Origin: a virus
Direction: 5' to 3' (one strand)
UHGV virus genome: UHGV-0113213
DNA: 52,407 bases
Under the pieces are notes generated by a model. That model searched no databases. It was given only the letters and a program-made list of their open reading frames with translations, and was not told the origin of the DNA. The first letter of the stretch is position 1. Each line of letters opens with the position of its first letter. A program made the position numbers and the translations under genes. This document shows, piece after piece, positions 7,505-47,223 of this stretch.

Positions 7505-7522
7505 TTTCTCACCTTGTCATTC

Positions 7523-7558
7523 TGTGATCTGCGTCACGCTAAATCATACCAAAATGGA
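7523..7558. promoter_or_regulatory. CRP-like palindrome TGTGATCTGCGTCACG plus ATACCAAAATGGA motif
   Basis: The minus-strand reading gives TGgTATGAT, an extended -10 pointing into L. Confidence 0.4.
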
Positions 7559-7633
7559 TTGATCGCGGTTTTTACAATATGTATATTTTACTCAAACGGA
7601 AGCATAGTTAACAAAATGGCGCGGAGGTGCGTT

Positions 7634-7822
7634 ATGACTGAAAAGCTATGGAAGTTGACGGTATTCATGACAGACGGTAGGGAAAAGGTTATCGCCCTGT
7701 ATGACGACGAGGGTGAAGCATTGGTTGACGCGCTTTTACTTGCTGAGGATGACCGCCTTTTGGGATACCAGATCGAACCTGTCAAATATGAGGCTAACAA
7801 AAATGAAAAAATACAGTCTTGA
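7634..7822 (+). CDS. hypothetical small protein (moron gene A)
   Basis: GGAGG RBS. Paralogous to the N-terminal part of gene B (7803-8150). Confidence 0.5.
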   Translation: MTEKLWKLTVFMTDGREKVIALYDDEGEALVDALLLAEDDRLLGYQIEPVKYEANKNEKIQS

Positions 7823-8150
7823 TGTGTGGTTAAGTGGTAGCAAGGAGTGTTTCGGATTATTTGATAGCGAAGAAGTAGCCCTGGAAGAAGGCAGGATTCT
7901 TGAATGTAGTTTAGGCCATCCAGTGAAATATGCTGCTAATCCGGTACAGATAGTTGATGAGGTGGAAGATATGAACCCGAAAGATATTAATGGTAGCTTC
8001 ACTGCTTATTATGCAGATTCTATGGACCAGTCTTGCCCTGGTGAAATACACGCAAAAGGTTTCCCGGCTGACGATCCAGAAGCAAAACGCGAATACGAAA
8101 AAGCGGCGAAAGATTTCTGTATCGATAACCTTTCAGCATTCGATAAATAA
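7803..8150 (+). CDS. hypothetical protein (moron gene B)
   Basis: ATGA overlap with gene A; shares a ~50 aa domain with gene A. Confidence 0.5.
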   Translation: MKKYSLDVWLSGSKECFGLFDSEEVALEEGRILECSLGHPVKYAANPVQIVDEVEDMNPKDINGSFTAYYADSMDQSCPGEIHAKGFPADDPEAKREYEKAAKDFCIDNLSAFDK

Positions 8151-8159
8151 GGCGGCAAC

Positions 8160-8408
8160 ATGGGGCGGCGCAATCACGGTGATTATGTGTACACGTTGAA
8201 ACAGGCCGCCCGCCTCATCGGTTATCATGAACACGAATTTATTGATTTGCTGATTGAGCGCGGGATACTGTACCAGGTCTGTTTAACGCTGTACCCGAAA
8301 GCGAAATACCTACATGAAAAGTTATTCATCATCATGACGGATGAAAACCAGGTTAACCATTCATTCGTCACTGATAAGGGCGTTAATTATCTGCGTGATA
8401 ACTTATAG
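8160..8408 (+). CDS. hypothetical protein with possible HTH (moron gene C)
   Basis: YTLKQAARLIGYHEHEFIDLLIERGIL has a helix-turn-helix-like pattern. Confidence 0.4.
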   Translation: MGRRNHGDYVYTLKQAARLIGYHEHEFIDLLIERGILYQVCLTLYPKAKYLHEKLFIIMTDENQVNHSFVTDKGVNYLRDNL

Positions 8409-8534
8409 GTGACTGATTATAAAAATAAAAGTTTTGGCGCTAATAATAATGGGGTTGATAGTATTTGGCGTTCATGCTGTAGATCTGGACTGGAAAACGA
8501 TAGCAGAAAATATAGCATTAATGGAAATAGAATA

Positions 8535-8568
8535 AAAATAACCCCGCTTCGCGCGGGGTCGTGTTTAT
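8535..8568. terminator. bidirectional rho-independent terminator
   Basis: CCCCGCttcgcGCGGGG hairpin with flanking A/T runs. Confidence 0.7.
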
Positions 8569-8762
8569 ACGCCATCAACCAAAAATAAAACCTCCTTCCC
8601 TTCCCGGGATCTACACCCAACGTACCCATCACCAACGTCGTGAAGATACCATATATCGCCGTTGTCAGCTTTTACAGTAAGGTCGTTGATCTCATAGTCG
8701 TCAAACAATGTAAAAGCGTAAGTTTTGTCAACTACACAAGTCCCGTACATAACAACCCCCAT
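8565..8762 (-). CDS. hypothetical 65 aa protein
   Basis: TAATG coupling to M. Confidence 0.45.
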   Translation of the reverse strand: MGVVMYGTCVVDKTYAFTLFDDYEINDLTVKADNGDIWYLHDVGDGYVGCRSREGKEVLFLVDGV

Positions 8763-9115
8763 TAGCCAACAACTTGCTCAAACGTTGCGTTTAGCGTGTA
8801 CAAAGGCCCGTCTTTAGTCATACTCCATTGCCGACAGACAAAAAGCCTTTGCACGTTATCCATTGACGGCGACCAGTAAAAAGCCTCGACCGCGCCGCGC
8901 GCCCTCAAGAATGCTTCCGCCTGGATTGCTACGTTTCCACCATCACCACATCCGGCGCTACTGCCTTTAAACACCAGGGTGTAGCTATCAAGCAATGGAT
9001 TGATACCTTTTACCTGTCTTTGCTCATAACCATCGCCCAGCTTAACAACAGATACGTCTGGCTTCCTGGTCACGCTGTAGCTTCTTTGCGGCGTCCATCT
9101 GAACACTTCCGGCAT
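8762..9115 (-). CDS. M: minor tail protein M-like
   Basis: Aligns with lambda gpM (FRW.P....S....V.FGDGY.QR). Confidence 0.75.
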   Translation of the reverse strand: MPEVFRWTPQRSYSVTRKPDVSVVKLGDGYEQRQVKGINPLLDSYTLVFKGSSAGCGDGGNVAIQAEAFLRARGAVEAFYWSPSMDNVQRLFVCRQWSMTKDGPLYTLNATFEQVVG

Positions 9116-26477: not shown

Positions 26478-26678
26478 TTACTTATTCCCCATTCGCGCGT
26501 CGTGTTCCTCTTGCGCTCGCTTGTTCTCCTGTGATTTGAAGTAATAGTTAACGGCAAATGTGCCTATGGTTGATAAGATACCCACAAAGACAGCAATATC
26601 ATTAATGGTTATCGCGCCGAAAAAAGCAGTTACGGCCCCGGTCACATACGCGCACGCCTCCCGTATTCTGTCGAACAT
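26478..26678 (-). CDS. S: holin (S21 pinholin-like, 2 TMD)
   Basis: 66 aa, two TMDs, charged C-terminus; ATGA overlap with the endolysin. Confidence 0.7.
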
Positions 26679-26691
26679 AGATTTTCCTCCA

Positions 26692-26720
26692 ACAAAGCAA
26701 AAACCCGGCTCGTGGCCGGG
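26692..26720 (-). terminator. tR-prime-like terminator upstream of holin
   Basis: CCCGGCCACGAGCCGGG hairpin followed by TTTTTGCTTTGTT on the minus strand. Confidence 0.6.
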
Positions 26721-26783
26721 TAATTACAATTTCGCATTGTTAGGAAATATTTTAATCTATTTGTTTTTTATGCGCGATTATGG

Positions 26784-26966
26784 CTACAAATCACTAACTT
26801 TCACCAAATCGCCATTATCAAGCCAGATTTTAATTGTTTCTCGCGTCGTCTTGATGATTGGCGCTACCCACTCACCATCGCTAACGCAAACGCGAATATC
26901 ACCACCCTCTATGCGATAAAACATCTTGTCGATTAGTGTTACGGCGTATATACCATCTTCAATCAT
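26784..26966 (-). CDS. hypothetical 60 aa protein
   Basis: ORF in a tightly packed minus-strand operon. Confidence 0.35.
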   Translation of the reverse strand: MIEDGIYAVTLIDKMFYRIEGGDIRVCVSDGEWVAPIIKTTRETIKIWLDNGDLVKVSDL

Positions 26967-27292: not shown

Positions 27293-27604
27293 TTAATCAT
27301 CCTCTTCATCATCTTCTTGTTCAGCCAGGAAATCATCTACGGCACGGTAAGTAACTGGAGGGATATATTCGAAGTCATCCGTATCAAGATCGAGCGTCCG
27401 GCTGTCGCCGTCGTCGTCCAGCGTATTCATCCCTAATTCACCGAAAGGGCCGTACCCAATGTGGCCCAGGTATTCGCAACCAATCGTAAACCCAGGGTAT
27501 TCGCCTTTACACCGGATTTTGTAAGGTTTATTTGATGCGCTCAATTTCCGACCCTCCACTTTCTGCTTTAGTGATTTTGTATTCTGCCGCCAGTTCAGCG
27601 CCAA
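27293..27604 (-). CDS. hypothetical protein, acidic C-terminus (start uncertain; overlaps upstream ORF)
   Basis: ORF. Confidence 0.3.
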   Translation of the reverse strand: MALNWRQNTKSLKQKVEGRKLSASNKPYKIRCKGEYPGFTIGCEYLGHIGYGPFGELGMNTLDDDGDSRTLDLDTDDFEYIPPVTYRAVDDFLAEQEDDEEDD

Positions 27605-27851
27605 GCAATTCCACTTCCATATTAGCGATACCCTGGAACATCAGATAGGCAAAAACTAGGCTTTTAATTCTATCCGGGTCTTCAAGATGGTCTGCATTAA
27701 AAGGCGGTTCCGATACGTGGAAGCATTTAACATGCGCATCGTCTTCAGTGGCTACACAGAAACATGCGCCAGGTTGCCCGGCGAATTCCCCCAATCTTTC
27801 TTCGTTCGGTAAAGTACCACGGAAAACTTTAACGCTGATAAATTTAGTCAT
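27528..27851 (-). CDS. hypothetical protein
   Basis: ORF. Confidence 0.35.
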   Translation of the reverse strand: MTKFISVKVFRGTLPNEERLGEFAGQPGACFCVATEDDAHVKCFHVSEPPFNADHLEDPDRIKSLVFAYLMFQGIANMEVELLGAELAAEYKITKAESGGSEIERIK

Positions 27852-28612: not shown

Positions 28613-28674
28613 TTTATAACAAAATGGCACTGCCGAAACAATGCCATTTCGTAAACCTTGTGATACAGATCACA
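28613..28674 (-). promoter_or_regulatory. promoter TTGTTT-N17-TATAAA overlapping motif CCATTTTGTTATAAA; perfect CRP-like site TGTGATACAGATCACA at 28659-28674
   Basis: Read directly from the sequence. Confidence 0.5.
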
Positions 28675-28675
28675 T

Positions 28676-28903
28676 TTACGTTTCTTCCGTAAAAGTAACC
28701 TTCATCGCCCCATCCGAACTACGGACAACATAACGACCAATACCGCCTAGCGGCCCTGCATACCATAAGTGACCGTAAGTGTCAGTCACGACGATAAACG
28801 GAAATTTAGGAGACAATCCCATCGGTTTTTCAGCCGTGTACTGTGCTCCTTCCTCAAAACAACCTAATCCCGATTCGTTACACGTTAAAATCATTTTATG
28901 CAC
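28676..28903 (-). CDS. paralog family protein P4 (C..S..CF..G..Y... GxxW[YF])
   Basis: Shares a motif with the next three genes. Confidence 0.45.
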   Translation of the reverse strand: MHKMILTCNESGLGCFEEGAQYTAEKPMGLSPKFPFIVVTDTYGHLWYAGPLGGIGRYVVRSSDGAMKVTFTEET

Positions 28904-29135
28904 CTACATACGAAAACGCAGCAAAAGCACCACCACAAGCCCGCGCATAAACAAGCGCAGTTCCACATCCCATCTTATAAAATCGCCATAACTGGCCCTG
29001 GTCGTCAGTAATGGCGTGAATATATTCCTGATCCTTTGCGTCAAACAATGCCGCTCCGACTTCGTAGATCTTGCCATTCTTAAAAAACGCGCTGCATCGT
29101 GAGTATGTGCACTGGTATCTCTGATTCTGTCTCAT
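28896..29135 (-). CDS. paralog family protein P3
   Basis: See P4 (28676-28903). Confidence 0.45.
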   Translation of the reverse strand: MRQNQRYQCTYSRCSAFFKNGKIYEVGAALFDAKDQEYIHAITDDQGQLWRFYKMGCGTALVYARACGGAFAAFSYVGA

Positions 29136-29144
29136 AACACTACC

Positions 29145-29360
29145 TCACCACTTAACAAAACGCGCGATCGGTTCCGTACTGAACTGGCTGGCAACGTGTC
29201 CACGCGCGTAACAATCCCAATAGCGCCACGCGTCTCCGTGGTCGTCTTTAATGTATTGGGTGTTAAGTTCATCACCAGTCAGGTGAGCTACGGTATATAT
29301 TCCGCCAACCTCAAAGCATGATGATTTTGATTCAGTGCATCTAACATACATGATATTCAT
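29145..29360 (-). CDS. paralog family protein P2
   Basis: See P4 (28676-28903). Confidence 0.45.
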   Translation of the reverse strand: MNIMYVRCTESKSSCFEVGGIYTVAHLTGDELNTQYIKDDHGDAWRYWDCYARGHVASQFSTEPIARFVKW

Positions 29361-29581
29361 TCCTTATTTGCATTTATAAATAGCGCAACTGGCACACCAT
29401 TACCGCCAACGCCATCAACGAATCCGCTACCATTGAGATCGTTATAAAAAAACCACGGATCGCCATCTTCATCATAAATGTACTGAATATCGTTAGTTCT
29501 GCTTATTAGCGTTTCTATGTCGTAAATCTCATCAACCACAAAAAGATTAGGGAAACGAGACTTTATACATTTTACAAACAT
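29357..29581 (-). CDS. paralog family protein P1
   Basis: See P4 (28676-28903). Confidence 0.45.
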   Translation of the reverse strand: MFVKCIKSRFPNLFVVDEIYDIETLISRTNDIQYIYDEDGDPWFFYNDLNGSGFVDGVGGNGVPVALFINANKE

Positions 29582-29832
29582 CAGAAAACCCCTTTATAAT
29601 CGACCGTGTATTTTACCACCAATTTCCACTCGCTATAGTTTTCCATGTCGCGCGGCTGCCAGCCTTTCATGCCTACAGCACTACGCGCAGCGTGGCGGCG
29701 ATAATCGTCATTAAGATCGGCAATGCACCACGGTTGAAGGAAGAACATATAATTCGCTTCGTTAACCAGAATAGCCATCATCCGTCCAGTGGCCTTATCT
29801 TTCGCCCTGAAATAACTTACCTTGATTTTCAT
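29581..29832 (-). CDS. hypothetical protein
   Basis: ORF. Confidence 0.35.
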   Translation of the reverse strand: MKIKVSYFRAKDKATGRMMAILVNEANYMFFLQPWCIADLNDDYRRHAARSAVGMKGWQPRDMENYSEWKLVVKYTVDYKGVF

Positions 29833-30044
29833 TTTAATACCTCGTCGATCAGCATTTCTTCTTCCAGGTTAGCCGGACGTTTACGGAATATCCCGGCAAA
29901 AACCAGGTCATCAAGTAGGTCTTTGCGTTTAAATAGCCACTCTTTCATTATTACCCCGTCATCGCTGCGATATACGACGCCGTTTTTCAAAAAATAAAAA
30001 GTGCTGGTATTTGTTTGAAGGTATAAATCTTCGTAAACGTCCAT
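29829..30044 (-). CDS. hypothetical protein
   Basis: ORF. Confidence 0.35.
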   Translation of the reverse strand: MDVYEDLYLQTNTSTFYFLKNGVVYRSDDGVIMKEWLFKRKDLLDDLVFAGIFRKRPANLEEEMLIDEVLK

Positions 30045-30276: not shown

Positions 30277-30560
30277 ATTTCTTTCCCTTTATAAGTAACA
30301 GCATCAGCGATCAACAATACCGCCAGCAATTCACCGTCATGTAACGGGTCTGGAATAGCAAAAAATATGTCGCTGTTTTTGTCCGGCACTACTACGCGCA
30401 TATTTCCCTGTTTGTCTTCATGCACGAACCACGGCTTTTCGTGTGGCTCAAACATGCCGAAAAGTAATTTAAGATCTATTTCTTCACCCTTCGTGAATAA
30501 CGACACATCAGTTGTAGTGATAACTAACGCTTTCTGATCTGCTGTTTTCTTCGCTCTCAT
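30273..30560 (-). CDS. hypothetical protein
   Basis: ORF. Confidence 0.35.
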   Translation of the reverse strand: MRAKKTADQKALVITTTDVSLFTKGEEIDLKLLFGMFEPHEKPWFVHEDKQGNMRVVVPDKNSDIFFAIPDPLHDGELLAVLLIADAVTYKGKEI

Positions 30561-30835
30561 TCCTCTGTCTCCCAGCGGTCTATGCTGATTAAAAAGTCCC
30601 GGATAGCGTGTCGCTCGTCGCGCGTCGGTTTACGCTTCCGGTAAATTTTGAAATCGAACCATTCTTTTTCTTGTTCGAAGTCCAGATCGTAAGCAAGCGC
30701 CTCGATATATCCGCAGTCGTGATACTGGTAAGCCACGCCAGCACGAACAAAAAAGCGGGTTTTATCCCGCTTGTGTTCATAGATACACATATTTGCCCCA
30801 CTATGCAGTTGTGTAACTATCAACCAGCTTTTCAT
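30557..30835 (-). CDS. hypothetical protein
   Basis: ORF. Confidence 0.35.
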   Translation of the reverse strand: MKSWLIVTQLHSGANMCIYEHKRDKTRFFVRAGVAYQYHDCGYIEALAYDLDFEQEKEWFDFKIYRKRKPTRDERHAIRDFLISIDRWETEE

Positions 30836-31031
30836 CCTTCATTCTGGAAAGCTGCATGATATTCATCGTGTAGCCGTTGTCAGAGAAAAGCCACTCCGCA
30901 GCCTTGCGACGAAAAACAATATCATCATGGTTACGTGTCCATGTAGCTATCACAACGCGTTTCCCGTTAGTGGCGAACATAGATAACGCGTTATCAACTA
31001 CGTCGATAGCCTGCCAGATTTTTAGTTCCAT
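30801..31031 (-). CDS. hypothetical protein
   Basis: ORF. Confidence 0.3.
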   Translation of the reverse strand: MELKIWQAIDVVDNALSMFATNGKRVVIATWTRNHDDIVFRRKAAEWLFSDNGYTMNIMQLSRMKDEKLVDSYTTA

Positions 31032-32156: not shown

Positions 32157-32504
32157 TTAGGCTTCATTGTCGTCACCTTCGAAATACTGCTCAATCGCAC
32201 GTTTGACGTTCATTTCTCGCTGATAATTGTTACCGCTATAGATTGCGGCTGCCGATACGTGATCGATAATTTGCTGTAATAAATAAGGATGAATTTTTAT
32301 TTTTTCATCAAGGACAATGCGAGATGGCTTAGGTGCTGTAGCAATATCATCAACGATTTCTATCTCACCACCTCCGCCGCAGCGAGGACAAACGAATTTA
32401 TCACCTTGATACAGCATGATGCCGCAACCTTTTTCGGTTTTTACGACCATGCCATCGTCGTCGCAGTTTTCGCAATACAGCCACCGAATATTAATTATTT
32501 TCAT
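32157..32504 (-). CDS. zinc-ribbon protein (CxxC...CxxC)
   Basis: CENC...CPRC. Confidence 0.35.
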   Translation of the reverse strand: MKIINIRWLYCENCDDDGMVVKTEKGCGIMLYQGDKFVCPRCGGGGEIEIVDDIATAPKPSRIVLDEKIKIHPYLLQQIIDHVSAAAIYSGNNYQREMNVKRAIEQYFEGDDNEA

Positions 32505-32694
32505 TGTCGTTACTCCGTCCGTAAATATGGACAGGCTCAACTGGTACTGCTGGCAATTCGCCATCATTTAACTCGCTCGCCATGCCTAATATTAAACGCG
32601 CTTCAGCACCAGTGACTTTCTTGCACCATGCGTCGCCTGTTTTATCTTCAAATAAGATAACGGCAAACTGATCGTTTATTTCCAGCTTATCCAT
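32491..32694 (-). CDS. hypothetical protein
   Basis: TAATG coupling to Q. Confidence 0.35.
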   Translation of the reverse strand: MDKLEINDQFAVILFEDKTGDAWCKKVTGAEARLILGMASELNDGELPAVPVEPVHIYGRSNDNENN

Positions 32695-33422
32695 TATTCA
32701 CCCCGTGTCACTCGTTTGATTTCGCTTTCCGCGCGAGATTCTTCTTTGAATAGCTCCGCTATGGCGTCTTCATAGAAAACCCTGTATTTCTTCCACCATG
32801 TTGATCTGCTTACCGGGAAAACAAGCTGGTTAACAGCCTGCCGGACGAGATCTACAGGGAAACGCGAGTACCCGCGCCCGCCGCAGTGCTGGCACGTTTT
32901 GAATACTGGCATTTCCGCCGCTTCGCTGGCTGCTTTATCCGGTACTTCGCCACGCCCCTTGCACCTCTGGCAATGGTTTTTAACGTAGCCTTTGCCGTTG
33001 CACCGCGAGCAAACTGTCGATGTGTATTCACAATATGGATTCGGTAAAAGCCCGTTACCTCCGCACTTAGGGCAAACCTTTTCGGTAGCCGCACTTTGGC
33101 AGTAATCCCGAAACGCGAAAACGGCAACAAGAATAATAAGATCATTGCGTTGTTCTTCATTTAATTCCATCACGTATTCGTAATCTTTCGCCATAACCCT
33201 TAAACGCTCTGTAAGCAAAATTACGGCCCTGTGTTTTTCAGCTTGCGATAGCTCCATTTTCCCTAAAAAAGCACTATAGCCAAGCTCTACGCGCGATTGC
33301 GCCATACCAGCGGCGGTAAGCGCATCCGTCGTATTAAGTGCATCCGGGGATGTTCCCCGGCTTTCGTCTGATAATCGCGGTGATTTGGGAAAGTGGAATT
33401 TCAGAATGGATTCTAAATTCAT
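32694..33422 (-). CDS. Q: late antiterminator Q (lambda Q family)
   Basis: MNLESILKFHFPKSPRLSDESRGTSPDAL...AAGMAQS matches the lambda Q N-terminus; Cys4 zinc site. Confidence 0.85.
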   Translation of the reverse strand: MNLESILKFHFPKSPRLSDESRGTSPDALNTTDALTAAGMAQSRVELGYSAFLGKMELSQAEKHRAVILLTERLRVMAKDYEYVMELNEEQRNDLIILVAVFAFRDYCQSAATEKVCPKCGGNGLLPNPYCEYTSTVCSRCNGKGYVKNHCQRCKGRGEVPDKAASEAAEMPVFKTCQHCGGRGYSRFPVDLVRQAVNQLVFPVSRSTWWKKYRVFYEDAIAELFKEESRAESEIKRVTRGE

Positions 33423-33604: not shown

Positions 33605-34008
33605 TGCTCACCCCACATATTAGTCGCATATTCGTTAATATCCGGTAGCAGGTCGCCGCGTTCGCATACCTTAATAAACAATCGCCCGCCTTTTACCTTC
33701 CGGCAGCGGACAATTTTTATTGAGTCGATTTGCCCATCATCATTCCAGAATCCGGCACAAGTAAGGCTGTCAAAAAGGCATTTTGGGATATTATCAAGAT
33801 CTCTGACCCGGTTATCCGGCGGCGCGGCATAAATGGCGATTGCCAGTCGGCAAGATAGGTTAATGTCTAAATTTAATAATTCGATGATGTCTTTTACTTG
33901 TTCCCGGTATTCCTTCCCCACTTCGCTGATATAGTGAAAACCTCGTGAATGTCGGTAATATCGGTTATTAGATGGCGGGTAAGGTAGGCTAAATGTATAC
34001 TCGTTCAT
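33601..34008 (-). CDS. rusA: Holliday junction resolvase RusA
   Basis: LPYPPSNNRYYRH...DLDN..K...D.L...GFW.DD matches RusA. Confidence 0.85.
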   Translation of the reverse strand: MNEYTFSLPYPPSNNRYYRHSRGFHYISEVGKEYREQVKDIIELLNLDINLSCRLAIAIYAAPPDNRVRDLDNIPKCLFDSLTCAGFWNDDGQIDSIKIVRCRKVKGGRLFIKVCERGDLLPDINEYATNMWGEQ

Positions 34009-37555: not shown

Positions 37556-37745
37556 TTACCCCGCCTTTCACACGCTCTTTAATATCCCATACGTGAGGCT
37601 TGCATATTTCCTGATAATAGTGATCCGGCCTGCTGCCGAAATACCATTTGCCATCCATATAAAAATAAACGCCAGAATAATTTCCTGGCGCTGCCTTTGT
37701 TGCTGCTTCTGGAATTTTCCATTCCATGTAATGTTTAAATTTCAT
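37542..37745 (-). CDS. hypothetical protein
   Basis: ORF. Confidence 0.3.
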   Translation of the reverse strand: MKFKHYMEWKIPEAATKAAPGNYSGVYFYMDGKWYFGSRPDHYYQEICKPHVWDIKERVKGGVIEDV

Positions 37746-37929
37746 GAGTTTTTAAATAACCCCTTCTGAATGCTTTGATGTAAAGTCCTAGCCTTCTTAT
37801 ATGCTGAACGCCATCAATGATGCGCACTAAATAAATTGCACCGTTTGTGTCAGATACAAAATGACAGCCAAAACCAATACCAACCAACTTCAGGTTGTCA
37901 GGTATTCTATAATCAGTTTTCTGTTCCAT
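37735..37929 (-). CDS. hypothetical protein
   Basis: ORF. Confidence 0.3.
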   Translation of the reverse strand: MEQKTDYRIPDNLKLVGIGFGCHFVSDTNGAIYLVRIIDGVQHIRRLGLYIKAFRRGYLKTHEI

Positions 37930-38027
37930 GCCTCACCTCATATGGTATTCAATAAACCACCTGATAAACAGACATAAGGCAATAAAACCCCAGCAACAGC
38001 ACATATAAAACAATGTGTCGTCCATAA

Positions 38028-42349: not shown

Positions 42350-42387
42350 TTGACTCGCAATATACGCCCCGTAAAACATCGAGTCAA
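42350..42387 (-). promoter_or_regulatory. pL candidate TTGACT-N17-TATATT inside an inverted repeat TTGACTCG-N22-CGAGTCAA
   Basis: Near-consensus sigma70 promoter on the minus strand. Motif copy TCCATTTTGTATAC lies just upstream. Confidence 0.5.
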
Positions 42388-42477
42388 TCCATTTTGTATA
42401 CTTTTTTAAAATATTTTATATGCCATTGATATTTAAATAATAAATAACGTTTTCTGTTTACGTTTTGGTGTTTTCCA

Positions 42478-42504
42478 GGCAAAGAAAAGCCGCCATTCGG
42501 CGGC
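42478..42504 (-). terminator. terminator after cI
   Basis: GCCGCCGAATGGCGGC followed by TTTTCTTT on the minus strand. Confidence 0.65.
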
Positions 42505-42510
42505 TAATGT

Positions 42511-43158
42511 TTATGGCAGGTTTACGATCTTCGCATCAACCACCACGCCTATAATTTTTGATTCTGGATTCATAGGGATTGGCGGATACAGCGGATTGAG
42601 CGAACGTAAAAGCCTTTGACCTCCATCAATAATCAACTGTTTAAACGTCGGTATCTGCCCTTCCTCAAGCTGGGCTATAACCAGTTTGCCGTCAATAGCT
42701 GGCGCGTGCGGGTCCACAAGTATCATCGTCCCCGCCGGGATGCTCAACCCCTGCGGCGCGTTCATTGATTCACCTTTGGCAACCAGCCAGTAACTGTCAT
42801 CTGAACAAATAACGCTAGTCGTAACGTGTCGTAATGCTGAACGCCTTGCGTCATCCATATTGTTTACTGTGTCCTTCCAGTCAATAACCGGGTAACTACC
42901 TAAATCACGCGGCGGCACGGCCTGAAGTGTATTAGAAACAGAATCATCAATGACCATGCCATCATGTGTAACAGTAAACTGCCGACGACCAAGCTCGCGC
43001 ATAATCCGCGCAATATCTTCAAGATTTGGCTCTCGGCGACCGTTCAGCCAGTGTGACAGGCCGCCTTTAGTTATCCCCATACGATCCGCGAGTGAATCCT
43101 GGCTCATGCCCTGCGCCCGCATGAGCTGCTTTGCTAAGTCATACCATTTTGTTTTCAT
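42511..43158 (-). CDS. cI: CI-like repressor (HTH_XRE + S24 LexA-like peptidase)
   Basis: N-terminal HTH (QDSLADRMGITKGGLSHWLNG); C-terminal SMN...G and K dyad consistent with the S24 family. Confidence 0.8.
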   Translation of the reverse strand: MKTKWYDLAKQLMRAQGMSQDSLADRMGITKGGLSHWLNGRREPNLEDIARIMRELGRRQFTVTHDGMVIDDSVSNTLQAVPPRDLGSYPVIDWKDTVNNMDDARRSALRHVTTSVICSDDSYWLVAKGESMNAPQGLSIPAGTMILVDPHAPAIDGKLVIAQLEEGQIPTFKQLIIDGGQRLLRSLNPLYPPIPMNPESKIIGVVVDAKIVNLP

Positions 43159-45007: not shown

Positions 45008-45147
45008 CTACCCTTCTACCTTAAAAATCGAAAATTAGCCACATGATTGCGCTTCTGGCGCAAAAAAGACACTGCAACCTTACAAGTGGGTTACGCGGTG
45101 GGTTTTTGCGTTGTAGCGCGTCTGAGGCGTTTTAAGGAGTTGGATCG

Positions 45148-46071
45148 ATGCGCAAGTTAACACATGATGAACAGGTTGCGGCTATCGCTAAGGTTAATCA
45201 TGATGTCGAAGTGCTTGGGGAAATTGTCAATAACAGGACAAAAGTATCCTGCCGCTGCAAGGTTTGCAGTCACGAATGGTCGGCTAGACCTTACAATCTT
45301 AAAAGCGGTTACGGCTGCCCGAAATGCGCCGGAAAGATGAAATTATCACACGAAGAACAGGTTGCCGCTATCGAGAAGGTTAATTCTGATGTCGAAGTGA
45401 TTGGCGAAATAATAAACGGCGATACAAAAGCATTATGCCGCTGCAAAGTTTGTAATCACGAATGGTCGGCTAAACCTAACAACCTAAAAAACGGGCGCGG
45501 CTGCCCGAAATGTAAAGGTTTAAAAATCGCACAAAGACGAACATTATCACACGAAGAACATTTATCCGCTATCACTAAGGTAAATCATGATATTGAAGTA
45601 TTGGGAGAAATAATAAACGATAGGACAAAAGTATTATGTCGATGCAAGGTTTGTGATCATAAGTGGTCGCCTAGACCTTATGCTATTAAAAGCGGGCAAG
45701 GCTGCCCGAAATGTGCGAAACACGGTTTTTTGTCACACAATTTCGGCAAACTTTACATCATGGTTGATGATCCTGAAGTGCCTACACAAATGAAAATCGG
45801 CGTAAGCGTTAATGAGAACAAGCGAAGAAATCGGGTATTAAAAAGCGCACATAAATCAGGCGTTAGAATCCCTGATTTATGTGTCGTGAAAACGTTAGAA
45901 GGTCCAACCGAAAATATCCATGAATTAGAAAGCACGATGCATAAATATTTCAGCAATTATAAAATTAACTTTCCTGTAAAATTTGATGGCAGTAATGAGT
46001 TTTTCTATTACAGGCCGGAAGTATTCGACATGGTAGAAGAAGCATATAAAGAGATTGTTTGCTGTCAATGA
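45148..46071 (+). CDS. protein with 3 tandem zinc-ribbon repeats plus C-terminal GIY-YIG/T5orf172-like domain
   Basis: Three copies of CRCKVCxHEWS..P...K.G.GCPKC; C-terminus GKLYIMVDD...MKIGVS. Confidence 0.5.
   Translation: MRKLTHDEQVAAIAKVNHDVEVLGEIVNNRTKVSCRCKVCSHEWSARPYNLKSGYGCPKCAGKMKLSHEEQVAAIEKVNSDVEVIGEIINGDTKALCRCKVCNHEWSAKPNNLKNGRGCPKCKGLKIAQRRTLSHEEHLSAITKVNHDIEVLGEIINDRTKVLCRCKVCDHKWSPRPYAIKSGQGCPKCAKHGFLSHNFGKLYIMVDDPEVPTQMKIGVSVNENKRRNRVLKSAHKSGVRIPDLCVVKTLEGPTENIHELESTMHKYFSNYKINFPVKFDGSNEFFYYRPEVFDMVEEAYKEIVCCQ
45157..45729. repeat. three ~190-200 bp tandem repeats (zinc-ribbon units)
   Basis: Protein-level triplication mirrored in the DNA. Confidence 0.6.
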
Positions 46072-46104
46072 ATATACAAAATGTAAACATGAGGAAATAA
46101 CAAC

Positions 46105-47223
46105 ATGTCACAAAGAAAGATAAGCGATGAGCAATTGATCGCTGAATATAACAACGGTTTAACGTACAAGCAGATCGCTGAAAAATATGGCATGTCAAAA
46201 CGCAACGTCGAGCGCCTGGGCGCAAAGCTGGCGAAACGCGGTTTAATATCCACGCGTCGCGCGCCGGGTTTTGGCGTCAATGGCGAGTCATTGCTAGTTG
46301 ATAAGGATGGCAATGTGATTATGCGCTGGATTAAAACAGCCCGTGATCGCGATGAAATGGAAAGGCTAATGCAAGCGGCTTGCGATGCTTTCACGGAAGA
46401 CATGCCACGCGCTGAGGCTGTGCCAGTGCCGGAAATTGATTTCCAAAAAAGCCTGGCTCTTTATCCGGTATTCGATCTGCATATCGGTGCGCTTGCGCAT
46501 AAAGCTGAATGCGGTGAGAGCTACGACACCGGGATCGCCGAACGTGTGTTAAATGACTTCTTCGACTACGCGGTGGGCGCTGCGCCAATGTCTGAAAAGG
46601 CTGTTTTGTTGTTAGGAGGTGATATTCTTCACACTGACGGCCTGTTACCAGTGACGCCATCAAGCAATCACGTCCTGGATTGCGATTCACGCTACGCAAA
46701 ACTGGTTTACGTGGCGATCCGGTCGGTCCGGCGTGCGGTCGGGAAGATGTTACTAAATCATAAGTATGTCGAGATCCAGACATTATCCGGTAATCACGAC
46801 CAATCAGGGATGATCTGGCTACGTGCGGCGCTGGCGGCTTTTTACGAAGATGAACCGCGCGTAACTGTTGATGTGTCCCCTGCTATCGTTCACCACACAC
46901 AGTACGGCAAAACATTCCTTGCTTACCACCACGGACACACCATCAAAAAACCAGAAAATTTGTTGTCTGCCTGCGTCTCTGACTGGCGGGAGGATTTCGG
47001 CAAGTCGTCGGCGGTTTACGCTCATTGCGGACACTGGCATCACCAACGGCTGATTGAATCATCGTTAGGCGTTGTTGAGTATCACGGCACGTTAGCTGGC
47101 AAAGACGCTTATTCAACAAATGGCGGCTGGCGGTCGCGTCGGCTGGCTGCGGTAATAATTTACAGTCCTGATCATGGGGAAATCGGGCGCTTTGTTTATT
47201 ACCCTGAATATTCCATTTTGTAA
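46105..47223 (+). CDS. HTH plus calcineurin-like metallophosphoesterase fusion protein
   Basis: N-terminal HTH (LTYKQIAEKYGMSKRNVERL). Phosphoesterase motifs DLHIG, GGDILH, GNHD, HHGH, GHWHH. Confidence 0.5.
   Translation: MSQRKISDEQLIAEYNNGLTYKQIAEKYGMSKRNVERLGAKLAKRGLISTRRAPGFGVNGESLLVDKDGNVIMRWIKTARDRDEMERLMQAACDAFTEDMPRAEAVPVPEIDFQKSLALYPVFDLHIGALAHKAECGESYDTGIAERVLNDFFDYAVGAAPMSEKAVLLLGGDILHTDGLLPVTPSSNHVLDCDSRYAKLVYVAIRSVRRAVGKMLLNHKYVEIQTLSGNHDQSGMIWLRAALAAFYEDEPRVTVDVSPAIVHHTQYGKTFLAYHHGHTIKKPENLLSACVSDWREDFGKSSAVYAHCGHWHHQRLIESSLGVVEYHGTLAGKDAYSTNGGWRSRRLAAVIIYSPDHGEIGRFVYYPEYSIL

Follow-up and report, generated by a model that had tools for sequence, protein, structure and literature searches.

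Four consecutive genes on the minus strand of a temperate E. coli siphophage are, by sequence comparison, true paralogs of one ~70-residue protein that diverged anciently, and we tentatively propose that they encode free-standing binding modules for host or host-defence proteins, of which different phages assemble different sets. The genes lie in the virus genome UHGV-0113213, a stretch of 52,407 nucleotides (the window). The array begins with gene D (29357-29581; 74 aa, acidic) and continues through C (29145-29360; 71 aa) and B (28896-29135; 79 aa, the sole basic member, pI 8.75) to A (28676-28894; 72 aa), the last array gene. All four are present where the first-pass annotation had placed them, with A extended there to its mechanical ORF start, GTG 28903 (28676-28903). 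The likely start of A is ATG 28894 (MILTC...), which has an AGGTG Shine-Dalgarno sequence 6 nt upstream and at which the orthologs P0005 and P0018 also begin; C may start at 29351 (MYVRC; 68 aa), as in P0003. Shine-Dalgarno sequences precede the genes. Across the 47 related loci compared below, neighbouring array genes overlap or lie 1-11 nt apart (for the majority of real starts the gap is between -25 and +11 nt), and this spacing suggests that they are translationally coupled.

A tandem paralog family had been proposed from a shared motif pattern, and multiple alignment, BLASTP and shuffle z-scores all place the similarity above chance. The 4-way alignment has nine invariant columns (M1, C8, S11, F16, Y22, I37, D41, G44 and W47), to which the motifs C..S..F, G..Y.V and D..G..W correspond; the acidic stretch said to separate the Y and D..G..W motifs is inconsistent, A reading PMGLSPKFPF there. 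The family alignment contains no conserved stretch of 7-10 columns. Among 22 local small proteins, BLASTP links C to D (2e-8), B to D (3e-6), B to C (2e-5) and A to C (4e-5). Smith-Waterman comparison against 1000 shuffles yields z-scores of 12.0 for C-D, 9.3 for B-C, 9.2 for B-D and 8.9 for A-C, with 0/1000 shuffles equalling the observed score. Since A-D similarity is not detectable (z 0.5) and A-B reaches only z 3.6, A is joined to D and B transitively, through C. There are no DNA-level repeats among the four genes, and the array DNA has no GC or other compositional anomaly, which makes the duplications old.

The proteins had also been described as Cys-containing, which holds for a single conserved position: C8, in strand 1. 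The remaining cysteines vary among orthologs (the extra ones of B are replaced in P0010 and P0012), and there is thus no metal-site signature. A zinc- or other metal-binding Cys protein is ruled out, C8 alone being conserved among the paralogs as against four CxxC-type Cys/His ligands. The array proteins carry no signal peptide, transmembrane segment or other membrane or secretion signals.

The phage belongs to the mEp021 or 'mEpimmI' group, which has been described (PMC11893012) in a paper that makes no mention of the array family. Parts of the 27.0-31.5 kb region are 85-87% identical to MagusPhagus, mEp044, mEp554, mEp010, mEp013, mEp021 and mEp515. The array itself (28676-29581) is 99.9% identical to a prophage region of the E. 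coli N25 chromosome (NZ_CM165897.1, 1994653-1995558), and the phage DNA therefore probably derives from the N25 prophage or a near-identical one. The array sits among ~22 small genes of the same direction that extend from after the Q-type antiterminator gene (32694-33422, minus strand; Pfam PF03589 Antiterm, E 1.7e-31, and the annotation of relatives), the upstream boundary of the block, to the holin gene (26478-26678, minus strand; annotated in MagusPhagus and mEp021), which is the first gene of the lysis cassette and forms the downstream boundary. None of the remaining genes of this Q-to-lysis block has a known function. The Q protein matches the DnaJ-type CXXCXGXG zinc finger (5.8e-8), and the ORF at 32157-32567 (minus strand), downstream of Q, has a faint match (0.006) to the same motif. 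A further ORF, 29829-30044 (minus strand), two genes upstream of D, is 93% identical to mEp021_41, annotated 'virion structural protein'; it lies in the Q-to-lysis accessory block, not among the structural genes.

In word-indexed searches, 36 and 85 proteins were recovered from 5.8 billion; wherever a source is named it is E. coli, one of its phages or an unclassified phage, and a Pfam domain is absent from all of them. An exhaustive HMMER scan of 1.84 billion representatives returned just 30 matches at E<=1e-3. Of 5426 complete E. coli genomes, 19 contain array DNA and three the full D-C-B-A arrangement, and every copy is annotated 'hypothetical'. Related loci in 45 viral contigs and GenBank phages were compared using gene F (described below) as an anchor, and members were sorted by iterated HMM searches and clustering. 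This comparison resolves at least ten subtypes (A, B, C, D, G, H, I, J, K and L), besides E and F. The tandem part keeps a collinear order of slots: K, then D C, H or I as alternatives, then G, B and A, with F ~1 kb beyond. The 47 distinct loci hold between zero and five array genes: F alone is found at nine, I-G-B-A at eight, H at six and D-C-B-A at three, plus the window itself.

This pattern bears out the earlier assignment of the genes to an accessory block, and the block proves to be highly variable. Nine of the 47 related loci lack the array and its composition differs among the others, and mEp021, which forms plaques and lysogenises, has no copy in the block. On this comparative evidence, the absence from mEp021 and the range of zero to five genes across loci indicate that the array is dispensable. 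Within subtypes A, B, C, H, I and F, dN/dS is 0.10-0.22 (0.42 for D, from two sequences), so the genes are nevertheless maintained. Tandem diversification, as first suggested, is thus apt for paralogs that have diverged but not for an ongoing process, purifying selection acting within subtypes; the lack of DNA repeats and these dN/dS values together rule out recent duplication or arms-race diversification. Variation arises mainly through the presence, absence and swapping of whole genes, not through fast residue change.

Directly after the stop codon of A, a 15-bp hairpin with a U-rich tract (28619-28652, minus strand) forms a terminator-like end to the array; its RNA fold has a z-score of -3.2, no shuffle folds as well, and in mEp044 the annotation gives Rho-independent terminator T7 at the corresponding position. 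Immediately before the holin gene (26703-26804, minus strand), a consensus scan and inspection of the sequence identify a promoter-like site, GTGAAA-16-CATAAT (26804-26777), followed within ~60 nt by a strong intrinsic-terminator hairpin (26721-26703). The equivalent terminator of mEp021, t5, is reported to have been experimentally demonstrated (PMC11893012). This unit is a candidate late promoter with a tR'-like terminator and resembles the lambda pR'-tR' unit, which suggests a late promoter downstream of the variable block and not beside Q; if so, the array would be carried on a delayed-early transcript. There is no convincing promoter for the array itself, the promoter scan giving fewer sites than shuffles. 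Elsewhere in the block, at 30753-30883 (minus strand), a promoter-like CTGACA-16-TATCAT (10/12) has a strong hairpin of terminator type, AAGCGGG...CCCGCTT TTTTGT, ~85 nt behind it; site and hairpin fall within the ORF at 30557-30835 and may represent a second short leader unit.

Two further genes of the window belong, or probably belong, to the family. Gene E (8565-8762, minus strand; 65 aa) is a dispersed fifth copy, situated in the tail operon directly downstream of a minor tail protein gene (8762-9115). It is recovered by an HMM of the four array genes from 543 window ORFs (E 0.0015), and its comparison with C gives a Smith-Waterman z of 6.3 (0/1000 shuffles). E is the ortholog of mEp021_70, falls in phrog_3249 (1.5e-22) and has homologs with 40-50% identity in Rtp-like and other Drexlerviridae. 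In this region (7514-8408, plus strand, and 8417-9115, minus strand) the tail operon is broken by a small opposite-strand island that is bounded by a bidirectional terminator and has E at its edge; the island genes in mEp021 are antirepressor-like and hypothetical.

Gene F (27293-27544, minus strand; 83 aa from TTG 27544) carries the family motifs C, GFTxG, EY and DDDGD in its N-terminal half, followed by a strongly acidic tail, and has a net charge of -16. Alignment to the family by hhalign (P 0.005-0.015, in the expected register) suggests that F is probably a half-homolog. In-frame natural chimeras (P0019, P0027, P0038, P0048 and P0085) join C-, D-, H-, K- or L-type N-terminal halves to the F tail, with the junction exactly at DDxGD; in P0016, P0036 and P0042, B- or K-type N-terminal halves are fused to the C-terminus of the unrelated gene at 27528-27851. 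Such natural fusions point to recurrent deletions across 1-2 kb of the block. F is the family gene most widespread in databases, and Bas11 ORF 42369-42554 (bas11_0061) has a similar layout (YPGFIAGKTY...DEDGDARYL...acidic end). The acidic tail of F contains DDFEYIPP, a loose likeness to DFDDDIPF, the acidic tip at the C-terminus of SSB from E. coli.

Structure prediction, one of the checks proposed in the first-pass annotation, was performed for A and C using AlphaFold2 with templates off and 21-sequence alignments. Both models (A, pLDDT 90.3 and pTM 0.77; C, pLDDT 88.5 and pTM 0.75) are six-stranded and all-beta with a long loop between strands 1 and 2. All four proteins are accordingly predicted to share one fold, a six-stranded SH3-like beta-barrel with an Asp-box-like DxGxxW hairpin. 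The DxGxxW turn of the strand3-strand4 hairpin (TDDQGQLW in B, for example) is conserved and Asp-box-like (SxDxGxTW motif), and this accounts for spurious matches to sialidase/BNR repeats: a PDB sequence search with the family profile returned just insignificant sialidase matches. The long repeat proteins P0101-P0103, P0105 and P0109 were dropped from the family, their match being confined to the DxGxxW hairpin at motif level.

The sole characterised structural relative is Gp54 of phage Bas11. The protein is bas11_0054, as confirmed by 11 residues named in PMC11578894; it defines Pfam PF25180, 'Phage antiviral trigger protein Gp54', against which it scores 116 bits, and its structure is PDB 9AXB. 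Gp54 is small and non-essential, and binds the sensor domain of CapRelSJ46 directly as the trigger of defence (PMC11578894). Its fold has been reported as very rare or nearly unique, and has been solved so far for Gp54 only. The features of the 9AXB fold, a six-stranded small beta-barrel with a prominent strand1-strand2 loop, are found in the A and C models, and the resemblance extends to size (66 aa against 68-79 aa here), to the FxxG before strand 2 and the GxxW in strand 4 at equivalent positions, and to genetic context, both being non-essential accessory genes (here on comparative evidence) in a small-gene cluster of an E. coli siphophage. The differences are also clear. Gp54 is single-copy in a virulent Drexlerviridae phage, whereas 4-6 paralogs are found here in a temperate phage; the strand2-strand3 loop is ~7 residues longer in the array proteins; Gp54 has neither the conserved Cys nor the DDxGD motif; and there is no significant sequence similarity between the two. 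A-D have no match to PF25180 (hmmscan against Pfam, E<=1), and three hhalign comparisons of the family with Gp54 give non-significant probabilities of 0.4%, 0.1% and 1.6%, with the FxxG motif in the same register in all three. These comparisons do not support a sequence relationship, and the two are therefore described as sharing a predicted fold, with homology unproven.

Wider relatives are found chiefly among other enterobacterial phages. C (1.6e-40), D (3.4e-9) and B (2.5e-5) are members of phrog_31142, whereas A has no PHROG match; neither phrog_31142 nor phrog_3249 has an assigned function, and membership as paralogs of one array is not recorded for them. Foldseek comparison with predicted viral structures gives TM-scores of 0.7-0.84 to many uncharacterised small proteins, mostly of Drexlerviridae, with others in Klebsiella, Citrobacter, Salmonella and Cronobacter phages; several phages encode more than one such protein, and some of the proteins have two or three domains. 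In Bas01 the homolog of E is located in a cluster of small genes that separates the helicase gene from the lysis genes. With the family profile, matches extend to P0108 and the multi-repeat proteins P0104, P0106, P0107, P0110 and P0111, which share the pattern VKC...F/L-T-x-G-K-x-Y-x-V...DDxG...RF; five of the six (all except P0107) match at E 1e-5 to 4e-4 against 1.84 billion proteins. These relatives match PHROGs 4927, 3523, 10169 and 10580 and Pfam DUF6501/DUF7244, the DUF7244 matches of P0104, P0106 and P0108 being sub-threshold. A wide HMM identifies several such genes in Bas11 and Bas07, among them bas11_0041, a genuine DUF7244 protein whose gene immediately precedes that of the Bas11 holin, and in Bas07 a polynucleotide kinase-phosphatase has the family domain fused at its C-terminus. 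Coordinates recorded for the wider family are 45669-46382 in Bas07 and 33759-33929, 37578-37943 and 45147-45338 in Bas11.

DUF7244 (PF23896) and DUF6501 (PF20111) resemble the array family as small phage barrel domains encoded near lysis cassettes, with the VKC...DDxG...RF pattern in common, and are linked to it through intermediates. The DUF domains are ~55 aa and five-stranded, whereas the array proteins add a strand between the W hairpin and the last strand. A-D, E and F have no match to PF23896, the link being transitive (through P0104, P0106, P0108 and the wide-HMM match bas11_0041), and A-D have none to the Pfam model of DUF6501.

Of the explanations considered, the following tentative model of function is the best supported. 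A-D would be free-standing cytoplasmic proteins of ~70 residues and one fold, old specialised paralogs produced from a cassette with translational coupling, in the dispensable block between Q and the lysis genes of mEpimmI-type temperate coliphages. The wider phage family around them would consist of small barrel domains, present in multiple copies in many phages of enterobacteria. Binding would be stoichiometric, every paralog having its own host or host-defence protein as target, and phages would gain, lose and swap array slots according to the hosts they meet. As a corollary, single members may be ligands of host immune sensors, as Gp54 is for CapRelSJ46. We infer the binding action, the host or defence targets and the timing of expression from the combined evidence: the genes are maintained although phages can do without them, divergence among the paralogs is deep, the slots are swappable, three of the four proteins are acidic, and the one characterised structural relative binds an immune sensor directly. 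The occurrence of the domain as tandem repeats and as a fusion to a kinase-phosphatase also fits a portable binding module. Against this reading, the low dN/dS values carry no residue-level signature of an arms race, SH3-like barrels have many roles, and the similarity of fold comes from predicted models. Gp54, moreover, is known as a trigger alone; its authors suggest that it may inhibit another defence, but this benefit to the phage is their speculation (PMC11578894). A-D match no characterised family in Pfam, NCBIfam or PADLOC, and their PHROG matches are confined to families without a function; no link to a validated anti-defence protein was found in Pfam, PHROGs or NCBIfam, nor in PADLOC, which covers defence and not anti-defence proteins.

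An improbable alternative is that the array proteins are accessories of the lysis module, SH3-like barrels that bind the cell wall or the endolysin. Such a role has recently been proposed for the standalone DUF7244 protein of T1-like phages, a member of the SH3 clan (PMC13164509), and the sub-threshold DUF7244 matches of the three remote relatives, the recovery of bas11_0041 beside the Bas11 holin and the position of the array, which precedes the holin gene and shares its direction of transcription, are all in keeping with it. The DUF7244 hypothesis is itself a proposal made without experiments, however, and A-D lack a DUF7244 match; an A3-only HMM gives bas11_0041 an E-value of 0.28. The DUF7244 gene adjoins the lysis cassette, whereas ~2 kb separate the stop codon of A from the holin start, an interval that holds eight unrelated ORFs and the terminator-like hairpin. 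All 47 loci have the same holin, endolysin and Rz families whether they hold zero or five array genes, and mEp021 lyses without any array gene in its block; the constancy of the cassette and the lysis of mEp021 both weaken this explanation, and array content does not co-vary with lysis-gene type. The lack of signal peptides and transmembrane segments likewise argues against it.

It is decidedly improbable that the proteins are virion-associated or assist assembly, as decoration proteins, chaperones or ejected proteins. This view draws on the location of E, which directly follows the minor tail protein gene in the tail operon, on the mEp021_41-like gene upstream of D, and on some relatives whose PHROGs or records bear the label 'virion structural protein' or 'minor capsid protein'. 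The second of these labels is an unverified annotation, though, and the array is missing from mEp021 and many relatives that have the same structural genes; the mEp021 virion proteome is uninformative on genes that mEp021 lacks.

A role as small nucleic-acid-binding regulators, SH3-, Sm- or OB-like barrels that modulate phage or host gene expression, is more remote. Small SH3-like barrels include RNA- and DNA-binding families, one relative matches phrog_14634 ('DNA binding protein'), the Bas07 domain is fused to an enzyme of RNA or DNA ends, and B is basic. The acidity of three of the four array proteins (A, C and D) speaks against such binding, however: charges are -2 to -7.5 for A, C, D and E, F is more acidic still, the alignment has no conserved basic patch, and the closest structure, Gp54, binds a protein. 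Finally, although the phage is temperate, the block varies greatly in gene content and the interval between Q and the lysis genes is a classical site of morons in lambdoid phages (stx, bor), it is very unlikely that the genes are lysogen-expressed morons conferring superinfection exclusion or another host fitness trait, given that they are co-oriented and translationally coupled in the lytic operon with no convincing promoter of their own, show no GC anomaly and no membrane or secretion signals, and that E has homologs in strictly virulent Drexlerviridae.

The reading of the array as a set of binding modules has a more specific form, which we consider unlikely. The Gp54 fold may mark out a large family of small barrels that is specific to phages, and the mEpimmI array may be a swappable battery in which each member, as inhibitor, decoy or trigger, would be the ligand of a different immune sensor of the host. 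Gp54 is among the few phage proteins structurally shown to be read directly by a bacterial immune sensor, and even its close homologues do not activate CapRelSJ46 (PMC11578894). New here are the Gp54-like predicted fold in a tandem, slot-structured and dispensable array of a temperate coliphage group prevalent in the gut, and its predicted occurrence in many uncharacterised T1-like phage proteins. The ten or more subtypes and the natural chimeras constitute a collection of natural variants with which the use of this fold to phages, and its recognition by other sensors, may be probed. Should the array consist merely of accessory genes without a link to defence, the outcome would be a cleaner annotation of a block in which all copies are 'hypothetical'; if the battery exists, array composition would decide which defences, CapRel-type or other, a phage evades or sets off.
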